From contig DASQND010000028.1 in assembly GCA_035645215.1 (NCBI GenBank), forward strand, positions 9,241-73,240: 64,000 nucleotides of DNA, given 5' to 3'. Below, piece after piece: positions 8,242-63,980 of the stretch. How positions within the stretch are numbered: the first letter of the stretch is position 1; every line of letters begins with the position of its first letter. Origin of the DNA: Allosphingosinicella sp. Lineage in GTDB: Bacteria > Pseudomonadota > Alphaproteobacteria > Sphingomonadales > Sphingomonadaceae. Below the pieces are notes generated by a model, which searched no databases, was not told the origin of the DNA, and saw only the letters and a list, made by a program, of their open reading frames with translations. The position numbers and the translations under genes are program-made.

Positions 8242-8355
8242 GTTAGGAACCTGCGGTTAGACAGGCGCGAACGCCTTTAGCCTGGTGGCCTGGACATGCG
8301 CGTCCGCCACCCGGTCGACCAAAGTCTGACCGGCTCTAACCGACAAGGTTCCTAC
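8242..8355. repeat. Imperfect ~20 bp inverted repeat (TCTAACCG..GGTTCCTA)
   Basis: 8242-8261 reverse complement tctaaccgcaggttcctaac versus 8335-8355 tctaaccgacaaggttcctac. Confidence 0.4.
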
Positions 8356-52114: not shown

Positions 52115-54022
52115 CTAGCCCGCAAAGATGATCTTCACGCCGCAGCCGAGCAGCAGCTGATAGAAGCTGTTGATCGTGTCCTTCGCCCCTCGCTGGGCGC
52201 AGTAGGTGAACAGGACGCGCTGCTTGGCGCGGGTGAAGGCGACGAAGAAGCCGGCGGTCGCCTCGGTTTGATCCTCCTTGAAGCTGCGGGCCCAAGCGCT
52301 GTCGTCCAAGCCGACAAAGATCACAGTGTGGTACTCGAGGCCCTTGCTCTTGTGGATCGTCATTAGCGGAACTGAGTGAAGCCCCTCATATGCGTCCAGG
52401 GCGGCTGCCCAGTTTGCCGCCCCGTCGGATGAGCCTTCGAGGTGTAGCGCCATCGCGTTCTCGAGCTTGGCGAACCAGCCGCCCTGCGCATAGGCCGGGT
52501 GCGCCGCCAAGAGCCGGTCCCTGCCGATGAAGTCGAGCACAACGCCGACGATTGAGCGAGCCTCCGTCGTGCTTGCCGGCGGCTTCGGGTTCTGCCGCTT
52601 CAGGTCTAGAACAAAGGCGTCGAGCTGGCGCGCGAACTGTGTGCGGCCCGCCTCGTCATCTGGGGCGACGCCATAGAGCGCGCCGAGCGCGTCCTGGCAT
52701 TCGGTCCAGAAACGGCCCGCGCGGGCCGTCATGGCGAGACGGAGTACGGCCACAAGCAGGTCTGACGCCCCATCCGCGAGGAGATCCTGCAATTGAACCG
52801 CGCCGATGCTGTCGGCTTCGTTGCGCAGCGGCACACCCGCGGCTCGGAACGCCGGTTCGAGCACCGCGGCGTACTTGTCGGCGCGCTGGCGCACGAGGAG
52901 GACGAAATCGCGAGGCGTCAGTCCGTGCTTTTCCATCTCGGACCGAACCAAGCCCGCCAGCTTTTCGGCCTCTTTATGGGGAGTCGAAAAGTCGAGGATG
53001 ATGCAGCTGTCTCCGCCCACGGTGGCTTTGGTTTTGGAGATCGGCTCAGCCGCGTGTGGATCAAGCGCCCGCGCGAGGACGTGCTGGATCTGAACCAGGC
53101 CGGGAGAGGACCGATAGTTGTTCAGGAGCTGCGTCCGGGTCACGTTGAAGTCGGCCGCCAGCGCGGCGAACGGGTCGGCCATCGCCATCGCCCAGCGCAT
53201 GATCTGCTGCTTGTTGTCGCCGACGGCGGTGACGATCGCTTCAGTTCCGGCGAAGATCGTTCGAACTAGATCGTATTGCACGTGCGTCGTGTCTTGGAAC
53301 TCGTCCATAAACAGATGCGAGTAGGTGAGCCTGAGCGCGTCGCGCACCATCGGGTTCAGCCGGAGCAGGAGCTCTGCCAGCCGACCGATCATCGGGAATG
53401 ACAGGCGGGATTTCGAGCCGGAGTGCAGTGACGTCTGCCAGAACCGGTCCGCCGCCCATAGACCGGGAGTCGGGCTCGTCCAACCGTCGATCGGAAGGGG
53501 CGCGCCGAGGAGGAGGTCGCGTTCGAACTTCTTCACGGAGATCGCCTGTAGGTCGGCGTACGTGCCGATCGTCTGTGGCGGCGCCCCTACCTGTTGGGTC
53601 AGAAACCCGCGGTAAAGGTCGTCGTTGGTCCACATGATTTCGTAATCGAACCTCGGCCGCCAGCGGTCGGGCAGCGCTTGGCCGAAACGGTCGACCAATC
53701 CTTTGGCGAACGCGTCGAAGGTCAAGGAGTCGAGCCGAGCGGCGTGGCTTGGGTGGCAGCGCTTGCGCACGCGCGCGGCAAGATTGGTCGCGGCATCGCG
53801 CTTGAAGCTGATCGCAAGGATTCGTTGCGGGGGCGGCGCGGCGCCCGTCTGGAGGAGGTAGGCCGCGCGCTGGGCGAGCAGTTCGGTCTTTCCAGCGCCC
53901 GGGCCGGCGATGACGGAGCGGTTGTCGGCGGAGCGCACCACCGCCATCGCGTTCGGCTCGAGCTCGTCGACTCCGATCGATCGCCAATCTTCCGGCCGCA
54001 CGCGCCGCGCCAGCACCGCCAT
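52115..54022 (-). CDS. gajB: Gabija UvrD-like helicase
   Basis: AGPGAGKT, DEFQDT, VGDNKQ, NNYRS, MTIHKSKGLEY, VAFTRAK; directly after an OLD nuclease gene. Confidence 0.85.
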   Translation of the reverse strand: MAVLARRVRPEDWRSIGVDELEPNAMAVVRSADNRSVIAGPGAGKTELLAQRAAYLLQTGAAPPPQRILAISFKRDAATNLAARVRKRCHPSHAARLDSLTFDAFAKGLVDRFGQALPDRWRPRFDYEIMWTNDDLYRGFLTQQVGAPPQTIGTYADLQAISVKKFERDLLLGAPLPIDGWTSPTPGLWAADRFWQTSLHSGSKSRLSFPMIGRLAELLLRLNPMVRDALRLTYSHLFMDEFQDTTHVQYDLVRTIFAGTEAIVTAVGDNKQQIMRWAMAMADPFAALAADFNVTRTQLLNNYRSSPGLVQIQHVLARALDPHAAEPISKTKATVGGDSCIILDFSTPHKEAEKLAGLVRSEMEKHGLTPRDFVLLVRQRADKYAAVLEPAFRAAGVPLRNEADSIGAVQLQDLLADGASDLLVAVLRLAMTARAGRFWTECQDALGALYGVAPDDEAGRTQFARQLDAFVLDLKRQNPKPPASTTEARSIVGVVLDFIGRDRLLAAHPAYAQGGWFAKLENAMALHLEGSSDGAANWAAALDAYEGLHSVPLMTIHKSKGLEYHTVIFVGLDDSAWARSFKEDQTEATAGFFVAFTRAKQRVLFTYCAQRGAKDTINSFYQLLLGCGVKIIFAG

Positions 54023-54024
54023 AG

Positions 54025-56010
54025 TCAGTCCCGCCTCAGCTTGTCAGCCACGTGCTGGAGCACCTCGGCCAGCACAGGCGGCATGTCGTTATTCAGTGCA
54101 GCCTTCTTCAAGTGCGCGAGCGCGGCCAGATGCGTGGCAGGCTTGCTGCGGGTGAGGAAGTGATACCGATAGGCCGGCATCAGGTTCAGGTATGGGGCGA
54201 AGACTCCCTTGTATACCGAGGTGCCTGGGCCGGCGGTGCCGAGCACGGCCTCAGTCGCCTTCTCGACCGTCATCTTCGGCCCGCCCCCTGCTGGGATCGT
54301 GGCCTCATAGGCAGCCGGGAACGCCTGCAGCATGGCAAGGTCCAGGTCGAGCGGGGCCGAGAAGAAGACGCCGTGTGCCTTGAGGCTGTCGACCCAAGCC
54401 TTGAGATTGGTCAATTCGTCGGTGTCCTGCCACTCGTGCATGGCTTCGAGCTGTTCGTCGGGAAGCTGGCTGCCGTCCCCGAGCTTCAGCAGCGTCTCCT
54501 TTGGCACATCGATCTCGATGAGTTGTTTGATTGCGGTTTTCACGCGCCCGAAGCCGCCGCCGTCGCGGCCGAGGTCCAGGTCCAATAAAGTCGCATACGG
54601 GATCCCGAGTTCGGCGAGCAGTCGCCAGAAATGCTGCACGTGCCTGCCGCCGAGCGGAACGATCGCAACGAAGGCTGGGTCGATGAGCAGGTTTAGAGCT
54701 TCGGCGAGCCGGGGGAGCACGACTCGTTCGGAGTCGCCCTCGACCAGCAGCACGAAGCGGGCAAAGTAGAGTTCGGGGTAGGCGAGCAGCGCGCCGCGAA
54801 CGAACTTCACGTCCTCTGCATCGCCGGTCGGCTTTTTGATCTTCTTGACCGAGGACGTCCGTTCGTCCGGGTCGCACCGGCAGTAGCGAACTTCGTCCGG
54901 TTCCACCCGGCTCAGCACAGCGGGTGAGTGGCTGGTGATGATCGCCTGCGCGCCACCGTCTTCGGTCAACGAGCGAACCTGCTTCACGATGCGGGCGAGG
55001 AAGAAGGGGGAGAGGTGGTTTTCGGGCTCTTCCAGAGCGAAGATCGTCAGCGCCGGGATCGTGAGTTCATCGTCCTGGAATCCTTCGACCTCGCCCGCAA
55101 CGACCTGACGTTCGAGGTCGAACACGGCGGCGGCGAGCGCGAAGTAGAACAAGGATTGCTGCCCGTCGCTCAGCGCCTCAAGGCCGCGTTCCTGACCGTG
55201 CGGACCCCGTTCGAAGACCACAGCAACCCTGTTGATCACTTCTTCGAAGCGGCGGCTGACCAGGCTCAGCCGCGGTTTGGTGTCAACGACCTCGTCGTGC
55301 AGGTCGGACCACCTTGCTTGGAGCGCCTCGCCGATCGCGGCGATGGCCTCCTCTTCGTCGAACGCGTCCGAGAGCGTGGTGCTGGCTTCCTCGACGGCTT
55401 GCTTGGTGTCCTCCGTCCATTCAATCGCGCGTAGAAGGCGGGCGGCAAGAGCGCCGGTGGTCGCGCGAACCTGGGCGGCGGCGTCGCGGCTGGCGGGCGT
55501 GTAGTAGAGCTGGATCAGGCCGCGATCGGCCGCTGCGACCGGGTGCTTCTTGTCGTCCGGCGGATCCGCATCCAGGCAGTCGATCCAATATAGGTTCTGC
55601 GACACCTCGCCTTCGGCGGTCTTGTCGTCCTCCCACCGCGCTTCGAGGCGCAGCCGGCACACCGGCGCCTTGCCGGTCCGCGTGAGCAGCATGTGGCGGA
55701 ACGAGGGTGCGATGGTCTCAGGCGTCGCACTCCCGTCGGCCAGTTCCGGCAGGCCGATCAGGACGTCGATGTAGAGCTCCATGGGCTCACGGTCGTCGGG
55801 ATCGTCTTCGGGGCCGAGGTGGAAATCCGATCGATGGATGGTCCTCTGCGCCCGGCTCACGCCGAAGAGCTTGGCGAGCGCGTGGAGCAGGGCGGTCTTA
55901 CCGGCCCCGTTCGGGCCGACGACGGCTGTGATCTCGGGCGCGAGTGGAACCACAACGGGATCGGCACCAAAGGATCGGAAGCCGGAGAGAGTCACGTTTT
56001 CGATGAGCAC
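54025..56010 (-). CDS. gajA: Gabija OLD-family nuclease (ABC ATPase plus TOPRIM)
   Basis: GFRSF, GPNGAGKT, LSDGQQ, LEEPENHL, LLVEGDSE, DLD. Confidence 0.88.
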   Translation of the reverse strand: MLIENVTLSGFRSFGADPVVVPLAPEITAVVGPNGAGKTALLHALAKLFGVSRAQRTIHRSDFHLGPEDDPDDREPMELYIDVLIGLPELADGSATPETIAPSFRHMLLTRTGKAPVCRLRLEARWEDDKTAEGEVSQNLYWIDCLDADPPDDKKHPVAAADRGLIQLYYTPASRDAAAQVRATTGALAARLLRAIEWTEDTKQAVEEASTTLSDAFDEEEAIAAIGEALQARWSDLHDEVVDTKPRLSLVSRRFEEVINRVAVVFERGPHGQERGLEALSDGQQSLFYFALAAAVFDLERQVVAGEVEGFQDDELTIPALTIFALEEPENHLSPFFLARIVKQVRSLTEDGGAQAIITSHSPAVLSRVEPDEVRYCRCDPDERTSSVKKIKKPTGDAEDVKFVRGALLAYPELYFARFVLLVEGDSERVVLPRLAEALNLLIDPAFVAIVPLGGRHVQHFWRLLAELGIPYATLLDLDLGRDGGGFGRVKTAIKQLIEIDVPKETLLKLGDGSQLPDEQLEAMHEWQDTDELTNLKAWVDSLKAHGVFFSAPLDLDLAMLQAFPAAYEATIPAGGGPKMTVEKATEAVLGTAGPGTSVYKGVFAPYLNLMPAYRYHFLTRSKPATHLAALAHLKKAALNNDMPPVLAEVLQHVADKLRRD

Positions 56011-56313
56011 GATAGATTACTCGACGTTGGAGCCGGGATCAGTGTCCTAGCTCAGGACCGCTTGGTAACGGCAGCAAATCCATTCCCCAATGACAAGGGG
56101 AAACGGCAGCTAGGCTGAACTGAGGGGTATTAGGGGTCTTAAGCTCTTAACCCGCCGTTCCGCTGGTCCGCAATCGGCCAGAAGCAGTCGATAGCTGCCA
56201 TCCGGCTTCGTCGCAATCATCGCCATGTCTCTTCGCAGCGAGCGTTAATCTGGTGCTGCCACCAATTCCCTAATCCACGTGAACGTAATCATAGGCTGTC
56301 TCAATATCAGTGT

Positions 56314-56434
56314 CAGGTTGTGCCAGTCTCATGGAGACCAGCGAAATGCGTCGCTAGATATCCGCGCAGCCGTTCACTCAGCACTGCCAATGTCACCATA
56401 GGTCGGCTTAATGCCAATTGCAGGTTGTGCCAGT
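56314..56434. repeat. 14-bp direct repeat CAGGTTGTGCCAGT
   Basis: Exact copies at 56314-56327 and 56421-56434, with further TGCCA partial copies between them. Confidence 0.6.
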
Positions 56435-56514
56435 GCCAGGGACAGCGCGGCCGCTCGGCTGCTTTTTAATCAAGTGCAAAAAATTTGAAGCCTTTATCGC
56501 AAGCGGCAAATACC

Positions 56515-56545
56515 TGGTGGCGGTGACGGGTTCGAGCCGCGGACC
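56515..56545 (-). other. Degenerate tRNA 3'-end fragment (att-like)
   Basis: Minus strand reads ggtccgcggctcgaacccgtcaccgccACCA (T-arm-like region, acceptor, CCA), 45 bp from the recombinase stop. Confidence 0.55.
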
Positions 56546-56590
56546 GTCCGTCAATCACCTTGTGTCAAAGTCGAGTTAGTTCGGTTATAA

Positions 56591-57499
56591 TCAACATTGC
56601 TGCGGCTCAAGGCGCGCTAAAAGCGATGCGTTTTCCAGCGCCATTCGCAAGCCGACATCCCCTACGTGCGCATAGATCGCAGTGGTGGCGATATTTTCGT
56701 GGCCCAAGAGTCTTTGTAAGAACCGCAAATCTACGCCATCTTCCAGAAGCAAAGTCGCGCACGTGTGCCGCAACATGTGTGGAGTAACGTGGACGTCTAC
56801 ACCGGCTGAAACAGCGAAGCGTCGGAGGGACCGACGTACCGATTGGGTCGACCACGGTTCACCTTCGACGCTGAAAAGCGACTGGGCTCGCTGCCTATTG
56901 GCTAATTGGCCGAGGAGCATTCGAAGGGGTTCGTCCACTACGAACACGCGTCGCTCCCGGCGGCCCTTCCCTTGTACATGCAAACCCCCGCCATCAAGGT
57001 GGAAGTCAGCTGGTCGAAGACGAACGAGCTCATCGACCCGCAGTCCAGTTGAGATGAGAAGCAGGACTGCGGCCGGGAACGCTTTGCGGATCAATGCGAT
57101 GTGGCGATCTGCGCAGATGCGGCGGGCGGCCGACGCGAGCAGAATTGCATCACTTCGCGCTAAGCAGCGTGGCAATGACTTCGCGCGAGGTAGCTGCATG
57201 TCGAGGTTGGAAAAGGGCGATCGATCTAGATCACCCGATCGGACTAGATCCTTATAGAATCCTCGAAGGCACGCCATTCGCCGACGTACGGTGCGGGGCG
57301 CCGCTGATCTCGCAGTAGCAAGGTACCTAGCATAAGCAAGGACAGTGTCCTCGTGTCGGCCGCATAATTTTGCTTGCGCGACGAAGGCTACATAGTTTCG
57401 CAGATCGCTCGTATATGCACGGATCGTGTGCTCCGAGGGGTCACGTGTCGACTTCAAGCGGCTCACGTAGACAGCCGCCATCTCCTCTGTGAGCAGCAC
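56591..57499 (-). CDS. XerC/D-like tyrosine recombinase
   Basis: TGLRVDEL, GKG, HMLRH, LGH, TAIY: complete R-K-H-R-H-Y set; no arm-binding domain at 302 aa. Confidence 0.93.
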   Translation of the reverse strand: MLLTEEMAAVYVSRLKSTRDPSEHTIRAYTSDLRNYVAFVAQAKLCGRHEDTVLAYARYLATARSAAPRTVRRRMACLRGFYKDLVRSGDLDRSPFSNLDMQLPRAKSLPRCLARSDAILLASAARRICADRHIALIRKAFPAAVLLLISTGLRVDELVRLRPADFHLDGGGLHVQGKGRRERRVFVVDEPLRMLLGQLANRQRAQSLFSVEGEPWSTQSVRRSLRRFAVSAGVDVHVTPHMLRHTCATLLLEDGVDLRFLQRLLGHENIATTAIYAHVGDVGLRMALENASLLARLEPQQC

Positions 57500-57637
57500 G
57501 CGTATATCCCCATACGCGGAGGGAGCCGCGGCTCATCAGATTACCGGATGGAACTCCATAATGGACATTGTTTTCGAAGTGCTTGCCGGCTTCCGACGCC
57601 TCTCGAGATAGGCTAGCGTGTCGGTAAGAGGCAGATG

Positions 57638-57659
57638 GATAACTCGGAATTATGAGCGA
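57638..57659 (+). repeat. Site A1, GATAACTCGGAATTATGAGCGA (contains the start codon at 57652)
   Basis: Perfect 22-bp inverted repeat with 60339-60360. Confidence 0.85.
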
Positions 57660-59304
57660 TCGGGCACCGCAATTCGCTCTGATTGATGCGTTCGTTTCCC
57701 GGGAATCTCAGGGCGAGGAGGTGGATGTACTCGTCGTGCCGAAGGTCGACCGCCGGATGGAGGTCAAACTGGCGGAGCGGACACCCAACCGTCGTGTGCC
57801 GATCGTGGACAATGAGCACGAATTGCTCAATCGCTGCGAGCAGCTCGAGAAGAAGCTGAAGTATTTGAAGCCGCGAAAAATGTTTGCCGACTTCCTCTCC
57901 TCGAGCGTCAGCCTGGTCTACGGGCCCGATGGGGTGCCCGGCTCATTTCGTCTCGGCGTCTTCGATTGGATGGCCTCGTCTGAGGAGCCGCTTCCGACGC
58001 TCATGGTGGTACGCCGCAATCAGGCCCGCGGGGAAACCCTATGCCGATTCCTGGCCGCCTTTCGGAAGGTGCCTCCGTCGCTTCGCCCGAAAATTGTCTT
58101 GGACGCGGAGGACAGCTTCACCGCCGCACGCCACCTGCTTCGGCACGCGCGCGACAATATCGCGATGTTCGTACCAGGCGCCGGCAGGCTCGAGCGTGGG
58201 CTTATCGAGCCGGCTGAAATCACGCTGGAGCGCTTCCCGGAAGCGCTCCTTTCCGGAGCCTTCTCGGCCTGCGCCGAAATGCCGATCGATGAGCCGAGCG
58301 CCTCGGCTCCGATCGAAGAGAAGCGGCGCTTTGCCGTCCTTCTTTATCAAAGAATACAGTCGAACAAAGGATGCGATCGCCGTTTCGAAGCGGCGGACGA
58401 CGTCGTGAGGCTGGAGGCGTTCCTGCGCTTGGCGCTGGACGAGGCGGGCGACCGCGACCGCGCCTGGCTTTCTGAAGCGCTCGCATTTGCGCTGCTTGAT
58501 CGAAGCTATGTTCTGGAGGAGGGGCGCGCGCCGATCGAGCACGCGCTTCACATCGCACAGGCGCTCGGCGACGAGGAGCTCGTGGCATGGGTCCAGCGGC
58601 ATGCGAATATAGCGGCCGGAGTGACGCCTTTCGCATCTGAACTCCTTCAACGCTCAACGGAGGTGCTTCAGAGGGCCGGCCGCTTCGCTCAGGCAGCCTA
58701 CGCCGCGACGAACCTCACGATAACAGACTTGCACCGGGTCGACCGGCCGATCGATCTTCCGAGAGCCGAGGCCGTCGTGGACTACGTGCTCGACTGGGCC
58801 CCCTACTGCGATCGCCTCGGCTCGATCATCAATGCCGCGGGTGCCGCTGCGTTGCTCGCCGGGAACTACGGTCGTGCCGCAGAGCTGTTCGAACATGCCG
58901 CCAAGTCGAACGGCGGGCGGCTCCATCGCGTCTCGGCTCAAGTCAATCTGTTGATCGCCCAACATGTCGACGGGACGCGTCACAGCGCGGACGCGGTGGA
59001 ACGGTTGTTCCGATCAATCGTGATCTCGGGGATGTCGAAGAAGCTCAATTATCATCACGTCTACCTGCTGGCGAACCTCGTCCCGCTCACCCGGTCGAAG
59101 GCTTTGAAGGCAAGGATACGCGCGCATCTGACGGATGCCCGCTACATGGATTATGAAGACGATGTGGTTCGCGACGATCGGCTTTTGGCGTTCCTGGCTT
59201 CACGATTCACGATGATCGCCGACGGCCGCAGCTTCCGCGGCCATCGAGGACGGTTCGTGGAGACTTACAACCTGCTCCCGCTCGCGCAGTTCATTTGGAA
59301 CTGA
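57652..59304 (+). CDS. Hypothetical 550-aa protein with a helical, TPR-like C-terminal half
   Basis: Long ORF; AAYAATNL and AAELFEHAA repeat-like helices. Confidence 0.7.
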   Translation: MSDRAPQFALIDAFVSRESQGEEVDVLVVPKVDRRMEVKLAERTPNRRVPIVDNEHELLNRCEQLEKKLKYLKPRKMFADFLSSSVSLVYGPDGVPGSFRLGVFDWMASSEEPLPTLMVVRRNQARGETLCRFLAAFRKVPPSLRPKIVLDAEDSFTAARHLLRHARDNIAMFVPGAGRLERGLIEPAEITLERFPEALLSGAFSACAEMPIDEPSASAPIEEKRRFAVLLYQRIQSNKGCDRRFEAADDVVRLEAFLRLALDEAGDRDRAWLSEALAFALLDRSYVLEEGRAPIEHALHIAQALGDEELVAWVQRHANIAAGVTPFASELLQRSTEVLQRAGRFAQAAYAATNLTITDLHRVDRPIDLPRAEAVVDYVLDWAPYCDRLGSIINAAGAAALLAGNYGRAAELFEHAAKSNGGRLHRVSAQVNLLIAQHVDGTRHSADAVERLFRSIVISGMSKKLNYHHVYLLANLVPLTRSKALKARIRAHLTDARYMDYEDDVVRDDRLLAFLASRFTMIADGRSFRGHRGRFVETYNLLPLAQFIWN

Positions 59305-60346
59305 CCACATGAAGACCGCAGGCGAGAAGGTATATCGCCGCGCGCTCGATGCGGTTCGCGGTAAGCGCGTCGATCCAGGCGAGTTCGGGAGCACTGCAAT
59401 GCTCTTCGACGTAGCGCGCTGCGAACTCGGTGACGGAATTGGCAGGCCCGATGGTCGGCATCGGGTTGATTTCCAGGAACACGCAGTCGGAGAAGGGGAT
59501 CGCGCGCCCGGCCGACGGGCGCGTCTTTAGCCGCACATCGATTCGTGACACGAACCGGCCTCCGAAACGGCGGGTCAGCGCTACCGCATGCGCTGCGAGT
59601 TCGGGTTCGGCTGGGCAGTTCAGAACGCCGACCTGGGTGCGGACTCCCGGATTGCGCTTCTCGAAAGAATCGTAGACCCAATCCTCGGGATCATCGAGCG
59701 ACGGCACCATTACCTGCACTCCCCGGCATTCGAGGTGCCGCGACGTGGCCGAATAGAGCGTCACGATGGTTGCGTCATATCCCCGCACGAATTCCTCGAC
59801 AACGTAATCGTCATCGGCTGCTTCACGCGCCTCGCTAAGCGTGAGCCGCGTCAGTCCGACGCTGCTCCCGAAGGTCCTGGGCTTGCGGATCACCTCGCAC
59901 GCGTCGGTGAGGCCGTCCGCCTGCGAGCGTGGAGTTCGCCACCCGCTGTCGCGGGCGATGATCGTAGCGATGTCCTTTGCCTCGCCGAGCGCTGCGGTGA
60001 AGGCGCTGCACGGAAAGCTCGGCACGCCTCGCCAGACGCTGAGGGCAGGAACCAGGGCCCACTGGTCGAGGGAGCGGTTTCCGGCATTGAGGTTGATCAT
60101 GAAGTCGATGTGGCCATGGGGCGAGCCGCAGAATGCGAGCCACTGATCGACGTCGAAGAAGACTGGTATCGCTCCGCAATGTTCGACGGCTTGCGAGAAC
60201 ATCGCAATCACGCGGGTCTGCCACCGGTGGTACCAATTCTCATCGAGCGGGACGCCGAACCTGTGACTGTAGACGATAGCCACGCGGCGCCCTTCGAGGG
60301 CTGCAGCGAATGCCGCCAGTGTCGCTCGGTCTCGCGCCTCGCTCAT
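59291..60346 (-). CDS. D-Ala-D-Ala-ligase-like ATP-grasp protein
   Basis: KPRTFGSSVG, VEEFVRG, SRIDVR, FLEINPMP. Confidence 0.8.
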   Translation of the reverse strand: MSEARDRATLAAFAAALEGRRVAIVYSHRFGVPLDENWYHRWQTRVIAMFSQAVEHCGAIPVFFDVDQWLAFCGSPHGHIDFMINLNAGNRSLDQWALVPALSVWRGVPSFPCSAFTAALGEAKDIATIIARDSGWRTPRSQADGLTDACEVIRKPRTFGSSVGLTRLTLSEAREAADDDYVVEEFVRGYDATIVTLYSATSRHLECRGVQVMVPSLDDPEDWVYDSFEKRNPGVRTQVGVLNCPAEPELAAHAVALTRRFGGRFVSRIDVRLKTRPSAGRAIPFSDCVFLEINPMPTIGPANSVTEFAARYVEEHCSAPELAWIDALTANRIERAAIYLLACGLHVVSSK

Positions 60347-60360
60347 AATTCCGAGTTATC
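60339..60360 (-). repeat. Site A2 (contains the start codon at 60346)
   Basis: Reverse complement is identical to site A1. Confidence 0.85.
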
Positions 60361-60449
60361 GGTCGCGTTGCCGCTGGCAGCCGGTGCCCGAGCAGCTGCG
60401 ACTTTCGCATTCCCTTAGCTTCGGTTACATATCAGCAATCAGCAGGACG

Positions 60450-60466
60450 GATAATTCGGGATTATG
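60450..60466 (+). repeat. Site B1, GATAATTCGGGATTATG (contains the start codon at 60464)
   Basis: Perfect 17-bp inverted repeat with 62200-62216; differs from the A sites at 2 spacer positions. Confidence 0.85.
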
Positions 60467-61414
60467 GATAACCCGCGGCAGCTTTTCTTCCTAATGAACA
60501 GCGCCTTTTTGGGCTTCGTACTGACCGCTCTTTATGGGATCTTGACGTCGCTTGCCGTCTGGATTCTGACGCCCGGCGATTTCCAGCGATATCACCAAGC
60601 GTTCTTCGTAACGATCAACTGTGCCGTGGCCGGTGGCCTGGTGTCGACCACCGCCATCCTGATCCTGAGGACGCAAGATTTCGTCCCGAAGATTGTTGAA
60701 AGCGCCTTTACGAGGAGGGAGCTCGAGGGCACCGATTATTACCCAAACAAAGCACGCTTTTGTTCGTTGACTCGGTCGCTCACTTTTTCGTCGTCGTTCG
60801 CCATCGGGGCGGTAGCCATTTTCTATCTAGCGCGATTTCCCTTCCGAGGCCCGGCGGAATATTTCATGATCGCGTTCGGCTGCGCCCAATATGCCATGGG
60901 CGTATACGTTGGAAGGAAGCTGTTTTACATTGCGCAGATGCTTCGGGCAATCGACGGGTTGAAGGTGAAAAGGGATTTATTCCAAAAGGATCGCCTTGCG
61001 GGCATAACCACCTACGTGAACGCGGCCTCGACCTGTACCGCAATCATGGTGTTTGTGGGTGTGCGAAGCTATTATTACGCGCCGTTTCAATATGATTCAT
61101 TGTTTGGAAATTCTGTAAAGATTTTCATGCTGCTTCCAGCGGTAATCGCCATTCCTGTCCTCGCTCTGTTCAATTATTTTCCCCGCAGCGTAGTCCGGCG
61201 ACTCTACGAGCGGTCAATCCGATTATCCCAAGAACGGATGAAGCGGCAGTTCAGGAATGTTAACCTTTCGGAATTCGAGAAGCTCACATATCTTGTCGAG
61301 TACGGAAAGATATCGCAGGACGAGCTGAGATACCGACTGAGGATGACACTCACCGATCTGCCGATGGCCGCGACGCTGGCGATAGCGGTGATAAGTGTAA
61401 TTGTGGCGAGCTAG
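60464..61414 (+). CDS. Hypothetical multi-pass membrane protein
   Basis: About 7 hydrophobic segments; AT-rich codon usage. Confidence 0.75.
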   Translation: MDNPRQLFFLMNSAFLGFVLTALYGILTSLAVWILTPGDFQRYHQAFFVTINCAVAGGLVSTTAILILRTQDFVPKIVESAFTRRELEGTDYYPNKARFCSLTRSLTFSSSFAIGAVAIFYLARFPFRGPAEYFMIAFGCAQYAMGVYVGRKLFYIAQMLRAIDGLKVKRDLFQKDRLAGITTYVNAASTCTAIMVFVGVRSYYYAPFQYDSLFGNSVKIFMLLPAVIAIPVLALFNYFPRSVVRRLYERSIRLSQERMKRQFRNVNLSEFEKLTYLVEYGKISQDELRYRLRMTLTDLPMAATLAIAVISVIVAS

Positions 61415-62202
61415 ATGAGGAAGATCAGAGCGGCCATCAGTTGCAGCTTCATTAGGTGTATCAGGAATAATCGCGCCTGAGGTCGCCTCCAATGCGCTGC
61501 GCTGTAAATGAACAGAAGTAGAATAAGGCCCAGCGAGATCGTTCTCAGCGAACTGGTCAAATGCATTCCGAGGACGCCCATGGCCATAGCTTGGAGGATA
61601 AATGCAATGACAGCAGCGCGCCCGGTGGTAAGCGATTTGGCGAGGGTTTGTCCGTCCCCCGGTGCGTCGTGAACGTCCATTAGCATCTCGCGTCCGAACA
61701 CGAACAGGAAGATTGCGATGGCCACGGAGGTGTGAATCGCCGGAGCCGCCAAGGCGGAATTTACGATGAATACGGGTACCGTAGCCGTGAGCGCCACATA
61801 CGGATTCTTCAGTTTGGGTAAGTTGTTGACGATTGTGTTGTAATTGATCGCGAGCAGGAAGCCCGCCAAGTAGATGAAATGCACACCACGTTCGATCAAG
61901 ATGCGAACGAGGATGAGCGACGTGCCGAACAGCAGCAGGTACACGACGGCGGCTTTCCCGACGGTGATCGAACCTGTCGGAAGCGGCCGTCGTGGATGGT
62001 TGATGCGGTCCCGCTCGATATCGTTGATATCGTTGAGGATGAACATGCACATTGCGATCGTGAAGATCGGGGTAGCCACTACGATGCTCGACCAGATATC
62101 CCGCGTGCGAACGTAATAGGGCAGGAACACCATTGCGAACGCTAGAGCGCTAGTTGCCGCCCGCGAGAGCCTCAACAGGCTTAACACCAGCCCGTGACTC
62201 AT
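61411..62202 (-). CDS. UbiA-family prenyltransferase
   Basis: NDINDIERDRINHPRRPLPTG and REMLMDVHDAPGD Asp-rich motifs. Confidence 0.88.
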   Translation of the reverse strand: MSHGLVLSLLRLSRAATSALAFAMVFLPYYVRTRDIWSSIVVATPIFTIAMCMFILNDINDIERDRINHPRRPLPTGSITVGKAAVVYLLLFGTSLILVRILIERGVHFIYLAGFLLAINYNTIVNNLPKLKNPYVALTATVPVFIVNSALAAPAIHTSVAIAIFLFVFGREMLMDVHDAPGDGQTLAKSLTTGRAAVIAFILQAMAMGVLGMHLTSSLRTISLGLILLLFIYSAAHWRRPQARLFLIHLMKLQLMAALIFLI

Positions 62203-62216
62203 AATCCCGAATTATC
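62200..62216 (-). repeat. Site B2 (contains the start codon at 62202)
   Basis: Reverse complement is identical to site B1. Confidence 0.85.
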
Positions 62217-62526
62217 GATCGGCTAACACGGCGGAGCGCACTAGGCTGGCCATTCGCCAGGCGCGCAGGCTTGGCAGATCTGATGGGCGGGCGAGGGCAA
62301 TTGCCTTCCCTCTTCGTCCGCCTTTCATCGGCACTCGCTTGAAGCGCGCCACGCCTCTGTTGCTCGCAACCGATGAGCGGAAACAGCGTATTGGAGCCTC
62401 ACCTGAACTCCCGCCGGAACTCCGCTTGCTTGTCCTGCTCGGCTGGCGGGTTCCGAAGTATCTATGGCTCATGCGGAGCATCGCTGTGCATCAGCGGCGC
62501 ACTACAATTGCGACCGGACATAAAAC

Positions 62527-62604
62527 TGGCGCGGGCCGCCAGAATTCGAACCCGCGGCCCCAAGCTTAGAAGGCTCGTGCTCTATCTAGATTAATTACCC
62601 TCAG
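62527..62604 (-). pseudogene. Degenerate tRNA-Arg(UCU)
   Basis: GATAGAGCA, anticodon arm cgagc-CTTCTAA-gcttg, GGTTCGAAT, 3' CCA; the 5' acceptor strand and D-stem do not pair. Confidence 0.6.
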
Positions 62605-63014
62605 TGGTAGCCCGCCGGCAGGTTTCTATCGCAAGACTCTCCGCCCCGTCGAATAAGCGCCGTCCCGTCGCGAACTAGGATCTCTCGGTGTTGCTAAGAT
62701 GCGGGCGCGAAAGGCCTGAATATTGTGCCACTGGCCATCGGCGGCTGTACACAATCGCAGAAAGCGGGAGGCCTTTACGGGAGACGGCAGCGTGGCAATC
62801 TCAAAGTCTGAGGCGGTCGGCTGGAGCGGAGGCGATTACTCTTCGAGAGCCACGTGACAGTATCCGCTCCCCTCCCGCTTTGAAGGCTCGACAGCTAAGT
62901 AGGAGGCGGTTTGACCCGTTAAGTTCGGTTGCTCCAACCGTCCTACTGCCGTGTCACAAGAGGGCGTTGTGGTAGTCACAGCGTGCCAAGGCGACTAAGC
63001 GTAGGCGCCCTAGG

Positions 63015-63980
63015 TCACCGCGCGGCTGGAGGGATCTGATAGCCGAAATCGAGGTGTCGAGCAGCGAGTCGCAGAACTAGATCCAGGCCGCAGATCACGA
63101 AGGTGGCTCCGCGGAGGTTGCCGTAGCTCCTGAGGGCATGCGTCTCGGCATGTCGATTGGGGACGTTGCCACGGGCGGCGGCATGGGTTTCGTTCCTGCA
63201 TGAAGCGAACAGCTGGTCTTCGATGAATTCGTACATCGACATTGTCTCGATCGGATCCTCACGGATCATCGGTGTTTCCAGAAGCAAGCGCAGCAGGCCG
63301 TCCACTGCGGCTTTCGAACTCCGCTTCGTCACCATCGTGCGCGCAACTGCCTCGAACTCCGGCATCAGGACCCGGACGACCGTCAGGTAGCTGCCGGTGA
63401 CGTACGCAGCACACGCCTCAGTCACTGCGGTCCGAACCGACGCCGAGACCCGGTCCACGTTATACCCAAGGATCCGCCGTTCGATTTCGGCGGCGACTGC
63501 CGGCCGGTTGCGTTCAAACCACGCCTCGGCCATCGCACCGACGTCGGCGCCTTCGTCGAGCAGCGACATCTGGAAGCCGTCTTCCATGATCGCGATACCG
63601 GGCCATTCTGCCTTTCGCAGTTCCCACGCCGCCTCCTGCGCGACCGAGACTGGATCGATGATGATGCCGAAGCCGGGTTCCGGCGTCAAATCCCAAGGTC
63701 GCGGATGGACGAACGGCCAGATTCCGGTGCCTTTGTGCGGAACTCTTCGTCGGAAGGGATCGAACATGTCTCTGCTCCTGACGTCCCGGTTGAACGTGTG
63801 AGGCTCAGCGTCTGCTGGCATGAGCTCGCAACGGGCCGCGTTGTCTCGTCGGCTAATCAAATGGCGGCGGGCGATGTCAATGTCAGGTTGCCCGAGTGTC
63901 AGTGTAAGGTTGTGCCAATGGCTACAGCTTCGGAAGCGTGACGCCGCGCTGGCCCATATATTTGCCGGCGCGGTCGGCAT
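63015..63980 (-). CDS. Hypothetical protein with a C-terminal HEPN-like RxxxxH motif; start uncertain
   Basis: PNRHAETH near the C-terminus in a helical region. Confidence 0.55.
   Translation of the reverse strand: MPTAPANIWASAASRFRSCSHWHNLTLTLGQPDIDIARRHLISRRDNAARCELMPADAEPHTFNRDVRSRDMFDPFRRRVPHKGTGIWPFVHPRPWDLTPEPGFGIIIDPVSVAQEAAWELRKAEWPGIAIMEDGFQMSLLDEGADVGAMAEAWFERNRPAVAAEIERRILGYNVDRVSASVRTAVTEACAAYVTGSYLTVVRVLMPEFEAVARTMVTKRSSKAAVDGLLRLLLETPMIREDPIETMSMYEFIEDQLFASCRNETHAAARGNVPNRHAETHALRSYGNLRGATFVICGLDLVLRLAARHLDFGYQIPPAAR

Follow-up and report, generated by a model that had tools for sequence, protein, structure and literature searches.

The window analysed here is a stretch of 64,000 nt from a genome assembly of Allosphingosinicella sp. 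(GCA_035645215.1, contig DASQND010000028.1). We focused on positions 56591–62216, where the gene of a Xer-like tyrosine recombinase lies beside two pairs of convergent genes, each pair enclosed by short inverted sites. The segments bounded by sites A1 and A2 and by sites B1 and B2 are referred to as modules A and B. The locus consists of the following features (contigs and sequencing runs are introduced below).

56591–57499, minus strand: open reading frame (ORF) of the Xer-like tyrosine recombinase, 302 amino acids (aa), presumed invertase
57638–57659, plus strand: site A1, core GATAACTCGGAATTATG (57638–57654) with inverted-repeat identity to 57659; includes the ATG of g1; inversion breakpoint in contigs L003 and L002 and runs X1 and X2
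57652–59304, plus strand: g1, soluble protein of 550 aa with C-terminal TPR-like helical repeats (weak fold matches) and an N-terminal part without assignment
59291–60346, minus strand: g2, 351 aa, ATP-grasp ligase fold, D-Ala-D-Ala-ligase-like
60339–60360, minus strand: site A2, inverted copy of A1; includes the ATG of g2
60450–60466, plus strand: site B1, GATAATTCGGGATTATG; includes the ATG of g3; breakpoint in X2
60464–61414, plus strand: g3, multi-pass membrane protein (316 aa) from a rare family
61411–62202, minus strand: g4, 263 aa, UbiA-family membrane prenyltransferase
62200–62216, minus strand: site B2, inverted copy of B1; includes the ATG of g4

A repeat search identified A1/A2 as a 22-nt inverted repeat (57638–57659 and 60339–60360) and B1/B2 as a 17-nt inverted repeat (60450–60466 and 62200–62216), both with 100% identity. 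All four sites contain the motif GATAA-N7-TTATG, which a pattern search found exactly four times in the window, at 57638 (plus), 60344–60360 (minus), 60450 (plus) and 62200–62216 (minus). The expectation was 0.01 per window, and none of 100 dinucleotide-preserving shuffles reached four matches. A fuller site consensus with three mismatches allowed revealed no site beyond these four in the 64-kb window. For each of g1, g2, g3 and g4, the last three bases of the motif are the ATG of the ORF. The central bases of the sites are CTCGGAA in module A and TTCGGGA in module B. The genes of each pair overlap at their 3′ ends, by 14 nt for g1/g2 and 4 nt for g3/g4, and the recombinase ORF is divergent from g1. 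The first-pass annotation of this DNA, made from the letters alone, had described the start codons inside a common motif, the perfect 22-bp and 17-bp repeats, the tail-to-tail pairs with these overlaps, the divergent recombinase and the unequal spacers, and it was right on all of these points.

The invertible segments are nearly all coding (2709 of 2723 nt in module A and 1743 of 1767 nt in module B). The crossover region ends at the ATG, and the alternative genes have at most their first two codons in common (A sites). No repeat was found between the 3′ ends of the convergent genes in the window modules.

Both module orientations occur in metagenomes

All orientation data come from public metagenome assemblies and runs. 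Four public contigs (L001–L004) encode a protein identical to g1, and we compared them with the window by blastn. L001 has the same arrangement as the window. L003 is 100% identical to the window, yet modules A and B are both inverted in place, with breakpoints within the repeats; neither the 89-bp central region nor the right flank is reoriented. The start of L002 is an inverted-type junction, in which the reverse-complemented central region is joined via site A to g1. L004 is a contig of 2723 bp that extends exactly from A1 to A2.

The biocrust metagenome X1 allowed both orientations to be quantified, with inverted junctions read from the loose ends of k = 31 unitigs on the window sequence. 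Every site was a branch point in the unitig graph. At module A, the junction unitigs had depths of 6.2 and 9.6 for the window type and 13.8 and 13.2 for the inverted type, with a total of ~22, and at module B the inverted type had a depth of 7.1 of ~26. The inverted fraction is thus ~63% for A and ~27% for B. As these fractions differ within one sample, at least three of the four possible states coexist and the modules flip independently. Among the junction unitigs of X1, only window-type and inverted-type junctions were present, with no A x B hybrid. As the repeats (17–22 bp) are shorter than the assembly k (at least 31), the inverted junction k-mers must derive from reads. In run X2, both modules were inverted, with joints between 60449 and 62216 and between 60450 and 62217 on opposite strands.

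Similar data were obtained for four further modules, which carry other cargo, at two related loci. For L012 (Sphingomonas), run X6 contained a module-only contig of 2723 nt, reference-type junction unitigs at ~6–6.7 of a depth of 11.8, and loose ends of the inverted type at both modules. For L015 (Allosphingosinicella), run X7 contained two module-only contigs (1703 and 1589 nt), unitigs of the reference type at up to ~42–50% of the depth, and again loose ends of the inverted type at both modules; opposite-strand joints at 8281/9870 were found in X8, X9 and X10. In all, both orientations were seen for six modules in three species. Inversion at these sites therefore occurs in nature, and the modules invert independently of each other. 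Independent invertibility of each pair had been proposed in the first-pass annotation, and the mapping of both orientations that it suggested as a check found them for A and B in the X1 unitigs. Orientation ratios near 30–60% in several samples indicate frequent flipping.

Could the two orientations be fixed differences between coexisting strains that arose by rare rearrangement, such as RecA recombination at short repeats or replication errors? The evidence on orientation is entirely metagenomic, which leaves room for this explanation. However, the flanks and modules are 100% identical between orientations, and both orientations occur within single samples. Repeats of 17–22 bp are too short for efficient RecA recombination. 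The breakpoints always fall in these repeats, which track one recombinase family and whose centres covary (see below). We therefore consider fixed strain differences very improbable.

A further explanation would involve no recombination at all, with the motif acting as an operator or translation-initiation signal of co-regulated genes. The motif does overlap start codons, and it is near-palindromic and AT-rich in a GC-rich genome. Against this, inverted-type junctions with breakpoints inside the motif were observed directly, and the motif always occurs in inverted pairs of equal centre beside a recombinase. As a sole explanation, an operator or initiation signal is contradicted by the inverted assemblies and hardly credible.

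The site accompanies one clade of recombinases

The recombinase belongs to the tyrosine site-specific recombinases (Phage_integrase superfamily), as it has the catalytic residues and a SAM-like core-binding domain. It matched the Pfam families Phage_integrase (PF00589, E 4.7e-34) and Phage_int_SAM_1 (PF02899, E 1.7e-10), and the residues R154, K178, H241, R244, H267 and Y276 are invariant across 48 relatives. Its nearest solved structures are XerA and XerD. It remained below the NCBIfam equivalog cut-offs of XerC (179.2 bits vs 335.15) and XerD (164.1 vs 329.6), and below the cut-off for integron integrases (TIGR02249, 108.3 bits vs 265, mostly from the C-terminal box).

Searches for the recombinase family returned 1451 matches, the best 120 of which have at least 62% identity. 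A profile scan of species-representative genomes yielded 31 close loci (51–92% identity) and 49 generic Xer loci (29–38% identity). The close loci are found in Allosphingosinicella, other Sphingomonadales, Caulobacter and Methylobacteriaceae (metagenome-assembled genomes, MAGs). Most of them contain the strict motif, typically at a distance of 125–140 bp on the upstream side of the divergently oriented recombinase gene, whereas none of the 49 generic loci does (~0.74 Mb). With relaxed matching, a site was present in 28 of 29 close loci for which upstream sequence is available, and the recombinase-proximal site lies within ~140 bp in the window and in most of these 28 relatives. In three close loci, the contig starts inside the site, which is where an assembly would be expected to break if the junction flips. 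The recombinase clade is thus associated with the site, and a search for the motif near homologues, proposed with the first annotation together with a comparison of their cargo, has this outcome, with cargo that differs between loci. This association suggests that inversion depends on the adjacent recombinase.

Paired sites have identical centres

We compared the sites of 24 modules. The central 7 nt are identical at both ends in 24 of 24 modules, whereas 17 distinct centres occur among them and the two modules of one genome always have unlike centres (five two-module loci). One centre, CTCAGAA, is common to five modules with different cargo. The centres of paired sites therefore covary. The idea that matching spacers define partner sites, put forward from the window alone, thus gains comparative support.

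The site can be refined to GATAAY-N5-RTTAT(G), a near-palindrome whose last base completes the start codon. Conservation covers no more than 17 bp, in which 7 bp separate ATAA from TTAT; the invariance of ATAA and TTAT is partly by construction, as these positions were part of the search pattern. Beyond the core, the only bias among the bases tallied is at the base 5′ of the site, where 21 of 24 proximal flanks have G and 13 of 24 distal flanks have C. Most modules have their start codon inside the site, and M1 does not vary among the homologues of g1 and g2. The initial description as GATAA-N7-TTATG with an included start codon thus stands as far as the motif goes, with the refined form as the better one, and it does not extend to a few relatives whose start codon is elsewhere. 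In modules L013:7158-9862, L022:3866-9872, L033:3678-7483 and L019:103-2760, the ORF from the site ATG has only a few codons or the site has ATC, and genes start 6–50 nt inside the module.

Partial extra site arms occur near two full sites. One is ATGGATAAC, directly after site B1 (window 60464–60472), and the other is cGATAACTGGaacg, 13 nt before site A2 of L005 (L005:12680-12709). They may be remnants of earlier sites or additional binding arms.

A promoter-like element lies on the recombinase-proximal side

Aligning the flanks on the site revealed a promoter-like pattern, TT[TCG][CG]NN-N17-TANNNN-N15-19-site, also written with TT[TC]CNN as its first hexamer. It is present on 20 of 24 recombinase-proximal flanks, including the short central regions between tandem modules, and on 1 of 24 distal flanks. 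Shuffled proximal flanks gave 0.5 matches on average and 4 at most. The sole distal match belongs to a module without the element on its proximal flank. In the window, two such elements were found, the first of them next to a conserved block.

57554–57587, no strand assigned: block CTCCATAATGGACATTGTTTTCGAAGTGCTTGCC, located between the start of the recombinase and P_A; holds the palindrome CCATNATGG, with an ATTATG-like half-site; conserved in an alignment of ~20 related loci
57591–57619, plus strand: P_A, reads into A1; TTCCGA (57591–57596), 17 nt, TAGCGT (57614–57619), 18 nt to the site
60403–60431, plus strand: P_B, in the 89-bp central region, reads into B1; TTTCGC, 17 nt, TACATA, 18 nt to the site

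The geometry of P_B is that of P_A and of the central regions in L015 and L027. The proximal element fits an alphaproteobacterial sigma-70-type promoter and may be one. Its position would imply a leader of ~25 nt, of which the last 14 nt, together with the ATG, are supplied by the site; the AT-rich site may serve as an unstructured translation initiation region. The conserved block may be the recombinase's own promoter, an operator or an accessory binding site.

On this basis, we propose that the locus is a recombinase-driven inversion switch that swaps genes, and we put the probability of this reading at about three in four. The Xer-like tyrosine recombinase would act on the 17-bp near-palindromic inverted sites GATAAY-N5-RTTATG around a module of two convergent units, and recombination between the two sites would flip the module. 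Pairing would take place only between sites of equal central bases; as CTCGGAA and TTCGGGA differ, the tandem modules would flip independently and one recombinase would set four genotypes. A fixed promoter would lie outside each module, on the recombinase-proximal side and 15–19 bp from the site, so that in each orientation only the promoter-facing gene would be expressed, with a transcript that runs antisense through its partner. In the window, g1 (TPR-like) and g3 (membrane protein) face the promoters, and in the flipped states g2 (ATP-grasp) and g4 (UbiA) would do so. A fixed promoter with mutually exclusive expression is well motivated by the one-sided conservation of the element, and it agrees with the first-pass annotation in that a flip would change the gene that faces a promoter. 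We suggest, more weakly, that such switching could be a form of bet-hedging between an enzyme state, often modifying envelope lipids or glycans, and a state with a sensor- or effector-like protein.

Several points weigh against this proposal. As all orientation data are metagenomic, clonal switching is not formally separated from coexisting strains of fixed orientation. The role of the recombinase is drawn from association, and the promoter and alternate expression from sequence conservation. Four of the 24 proximal flanks are without the element, and a scan of three flanks for sigma-70 sites of the E. coli type found none; the family-specific element emerged only when flanks were compared. 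A Shine-Dalgarno sequence is not evident. An ATG within the site is common but not obligatory, since L013, L022 and parts of L033 and L019 have sites with a terminal ATC or gene starts a little beyond the site. Finally, the proposal does not account for alternatives that are non-homologous and yet inherited as fixed pairs.

A conserved platform carries cassette-like cargo

The recombinase, the outward promoter-like element and the primary site form a conserved unit of 1.05 kb. When loci are compared, nucleotide similarity sets in exactly at the proximal site, continues across the promoter region and the recombinase gene and stops close to the stop codon of the latter, and the cargo is dissimilar. 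The window and L013, for example, have 86% identity over 57656–56606. L014 and L034 have both flanks and the centre CTCAGAA in common, with different cargo, and the UbiA module is second in the window and first in L029. As homology between loci stops exactly at the site, the cargo is cassette-like, and this pattern is what whole-module exchange at the sites would be expected to leave. The first-pass annotation had called each pair 'invertible or mobile'; for mobility, replacement of the cargo exactly at the sites between relatives is indirect support.

In the L014/L034 comparison (L014:1873-3063 and L034:4318-5510), the platform and a gene beyond the distal site (76% identity) are common to both loci. 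The cargo is a DegT/radical-SAM/GNAT arm with an AAA_16 protein of 1182 aa in one and GT2-PIG-L with a protein of 954 aa in the other.

These data raise the question of whether inversion is a side reaction of a platform that serves mainly for gene capture or cassette exchange, with both genes expressed in any orientation from promoters in their context. Unrelated cargo beside homology that spans the interval from the proximal site to the recombinase stop would be expected in that case, as would common flanks and centre with unlike cargo in L014 and L034 and the use of one centre by five modules. In addition, the distal gene of L008 lies downstream of a co-directional gene. On the other hand, a side reaction does not account for a promoter-like element that 20 of 24 proximal flanks carry and only 1 of 24 distal flanks does, and the orientation ratios near 30–60% in several samples point to frequent flipping. 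The conserved ATG in the site and the fixed gene pairs suggest that the swap itself is selected; exchange and switching are also compatible. We regard a mere side reaction as unlikely.

Returning to the inversion switch, its cassette-like cargo permits an extended version, which we offer as a tentative idea and consider rather unlikely. The platform could be an integron-like capture system for two-faced cassettes, in which the same recombinase would flip cassettes and swap those of equal centre between DNA molecules. In each cassette, an enzyme would face a partner resembling a sensor or effector (STAND-like AAA_16, TPR, pentapeptide-transmembrane, or a multi-transmembrane (multi-TM) protein with TIR-fused relatives). 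If this is true, a clonal population would be split into two functionally complementary cell types.

Modules pair unrelated genes

Modules in the family are filled from one site to the other by two convergent units, and some arms hold two or three genes. The partners in a module are unrelated to each other in sequence, annotated family or fold. Membrane enzymes are paired with membrane partners and soluble enzymes with soluble partners. The following pairs recur:

TPR-like protein of 550 aa and ATP-grasp ligase
multi-TM protein of 281–317 aa and UbiA
multi-TM protein of 343–386 aa and CDP-alcohol phosphatidyltransferase
multi-TM protein of 351 aa and PAP2
pentapeptide-repeat protein (495–541 aa) and aminotransferase-like protein
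AAA_16 protein of 1088–1197 aa or unannotated protein of 954 aa and an arm with GT2, PIG-L, DegT, radical-SAM, GNAT or class-III aminotransferase
methyltransferase and GNAT-like protein
spermidine-synthase-like protein and protein of 289 aa
FAD enzyme and g3-like membrane protein

The two modules of L015 carry methyltransferase/GNAT-like and multi-TM/CDP-alcohol-phosphatidyltransferase pairs.

The g1 protein matched no Pfam, NCBIfam or PADLOC family. Its AlphaFold model has a predicted local distance difference test score (pLDDT) of 70.6, and its best Foldseek matches, which are weak, are TPR proteins. For g2, a weak NCBIfam match to Ddl is joined by a Foldseek match of its model (pLDDT 84.3) to Ddl structures with E 5e-14. 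Sequence searches of the PDB with g1 and g2 gave no match, so for these proteins only the fold comparison was informative. Homologues of g1 form 15 clusters at 40–61% identity. In species-representative genomes, a search with the single g1 protein found none and a profile found only two MAGs. The homologues of g1 and g2 (40–69% identity) are rare and always occur together, and several of the longest contigs are ~2.7 kb, the length of the module. In SMAG_U5820 (Sphingomonas sp.), a g1/g2 module is flanked by GATAACTGGGGATTATG and a second module, with a pentapeptide protein and a protein of 396 aa, by GATAACTCAGAATTATG; the recombinase lies between the modules. BP_701 (Sphingomonadales) has a single g1/g2 module flanked by GATAACTCTGGATTATG.

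The g3 protein has ~five hydrophobic segments, and its family has 71 representatives among 1.84 billion proteins. A hidden Markov model of this family gave no significant match to the other partner families, and no relationship among the partner families was detected. Three of nine longer g3 relatives (P0186, P0187 and P0194) are fused to TIR_2. TIR domains are a hallmark of immune or conflict systems. The g4 protein matched Pfam UbiA (E 1e-15) and has ~seven hydrophobic segments. PADLOC assigned neither the recombinase nor any of the four cargo proteins of the window. Phase-variable envelope modification and a role in conflict systems are reasonable guesses for the function of these modules, but no more than guesses.

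Comparison with known inversion and cassette systems

[quoted passage not shown] The systems have in common an adjacent Xer-like tyrosine recombinase, inverted sites at the 5′ ends of alternative complete genes and both orientations in populations. The fixed outside promoter of the vpma type may have its counterpart in the element conserved on one flank only (20 of 24 vs 1 of 24). However, the vpma and vsp genes encode paralogous surface lipoproteins and have one common site sequence, and any gene can reach the single expression site. The modules described here have centres of their own, which would make them orthogonal two-state switches, and their alternative genes, which lack homology to each other, mostly encode enzymes or large proteins of the cytoplasm or membrane. 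Moreover, the 17-bp site includes the ATG, the cargo varies between genomes and the hosts are free-living soil Alphaproteobacteria.

At the mba locus and UU172 of Ureaplasma parvum, expression alternates between two oppositely oriented ORFs as short inverted repeats mediate DNA inversion, and recombinases of the Xer type are suspected (PMC3047005). These loci also switch different, oppositely oriented ORFs by inversion. Their crossover, however, lies inside the coding region, so that a constant 5′ part (signal peptide, anchor) is joined to alternative 3′ parts and chimeras result, whereas here complete ORFs are swapped at the start codon. Nor do the Ureaplasma loci form a cassette platform of varied cargo.

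In the G segment of phage Mu and the C segment of P1, two convergent alternative gene sets are inverted by Gin or Cin, and a fixed promoter outside reads the facing set. An invertible segment with convergent alternatives and, as proposed here, an outside promoter is a point of likeness. Gin and Cin are serine invertases that require a Fis-dependent enhancer, their sites lie in the S gene and the alternatives are homologous tail-fibre variants. The present locus has a tyrosine recombinase as its only recombinase and does not belong with the serine invertases.

Sites of the dif/pdif type are 28 bp long (11-6-11) and are used by host XerC and XerD, and pdif modules of Acinetobacter carry varied cargo. 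Inner arms of ATAA ... TTATG, a Xer-like recombinase and modules bounded by oppositely oriented sites recall these systems. Unlike them, our sites are conserved over 17 bp with a 7-bp spacer and contain start codons, and one dedicated recombinase is linked to them; they are not 28-bp dif sites. The alternating orientation had been likened to pdif arrays from the start, with the 7-bp spacer as the point of difference, and this assessment holds.

In integrons, the intI-Pc-attI platform comprises a divergent integrase gene, a promoter that points outward and a primary site, and the variable cargo behind it has no promoters. The loci studied here resemble this in their divergent tyrosine recombinase, outward promoter-like element and site, and in homology that stops at the site. 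They differ in having sites at the 5′ ends that include start codons, convergent genes and inversion of two-faced cassettes between identical inverted sites, with no attC hairpins at the 3′ ends and no arrays of cassettes in one direction, and the recombinase is not of the IntI type. Compared with promoter invertons of the fimS type, the segment is filled by two ORFs and the promoter-like element lies outside. Compared with Rci shufflons and hsdS-type inversions, the crossover ends at the ATG and there is no constant N-terminus. On the features compared, the locus therefore falls outside integrons, shufflons and promoter invertons, as the first-pass annotation had maintained.

Heterospecific spacer variants of lox and FRT, engineered sites of 34 bp, recombine only when their central bases are identical, and inverted identical sites flip reversibly. 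The sites described here likewise appear to form orthogonal pairs run by one recombinase, although they are natural and 17 bp long.

A systematic search for gene-altering inversions considered repeats of at least 22 bp with at least one strictly inside a coding sequence (PMC9881135). Such systematic searches would miss this family, as its sites have only 17 bp and hold the start codon (PMC9881135). Our literature searches found no earlier description of this recombinase-site family, although their coverage was incomplete and absence is unproven. While the principle is known from vpma and vsp, the orthogonal centres, non-homologous alternatives, ATG in a 17-bp site, cassette-like cargo and soil hosts set this family apart.

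What the switch would mean

If our reading is correct, programmed inversion would serve to select which of two complete, unrelated genes a fixed promoter reads, rather than flip a promoter or shuffle variants of one protein. Several orthogonal switches could run off one recombinase, as their sites differ in few central bases. Such switches may be under-counted outside host-associated bacteria. A recombinase-promoter-site unit whose cargo is replaced exactly at the site would link phase variation to cassette-type gene acquisition. The pairs are fixed, with an enzyme opposite a large non-enzymatic protein, and their phenotypes could be read by locking the orientation. The compact and naturally orthogonal inversion sites may also be of use in engineering.

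Genomic neighbourhood

To the left of the recombinase lies a complete Gabija pair (window 52115–56010, minus strand) that consists of gajB, a UvrD-like helicase of 635 aa, and gajA, an ATPase with OLD-type TOPRIM of 661 aa (PADLOC E-values 5.7e-215 and 1.9e-246, respectively). Further left, the identical contig L001 carries a BrxR/WYL regulator and a Prok-E2/ThiF/JAB cluster. As Gabija and further defence-type genes adjoin it, the switch lies at the edge of a defence island.

To the right of B2, the next ORF (63015–63767, minus strand, 250 aa; 321 aa from the first start codon, 63015–63980) has no Pfam, NCBIfam or PADLOC match. The ~800 bp between B2 and this ORF (62217–63014) are apparently non-coding and contain one terminator-like hairpin (62526–62542, minus strand). 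The tRNA-like look of 62520–62600 had raised the possibility of an island inserted at a tRNA gene, which was dropped because scans of the window for tRNA and tmRNA genes found none and a scan of 56000–63200 gave no Rfam match.

A direct repeat of 33–54 nt that ends in GTCAGGTTGTGCCA occurs in three copies (56282–56335, 56389–56442 and 63885–63917; 73–79% identity; 3 matches vs 0.35 expected). The copies bracket the recombinase, both modules and the next ORF, and they could either mark the limits of a larger element that was inserted here or belong to an intergenic repeat that is dispersed.

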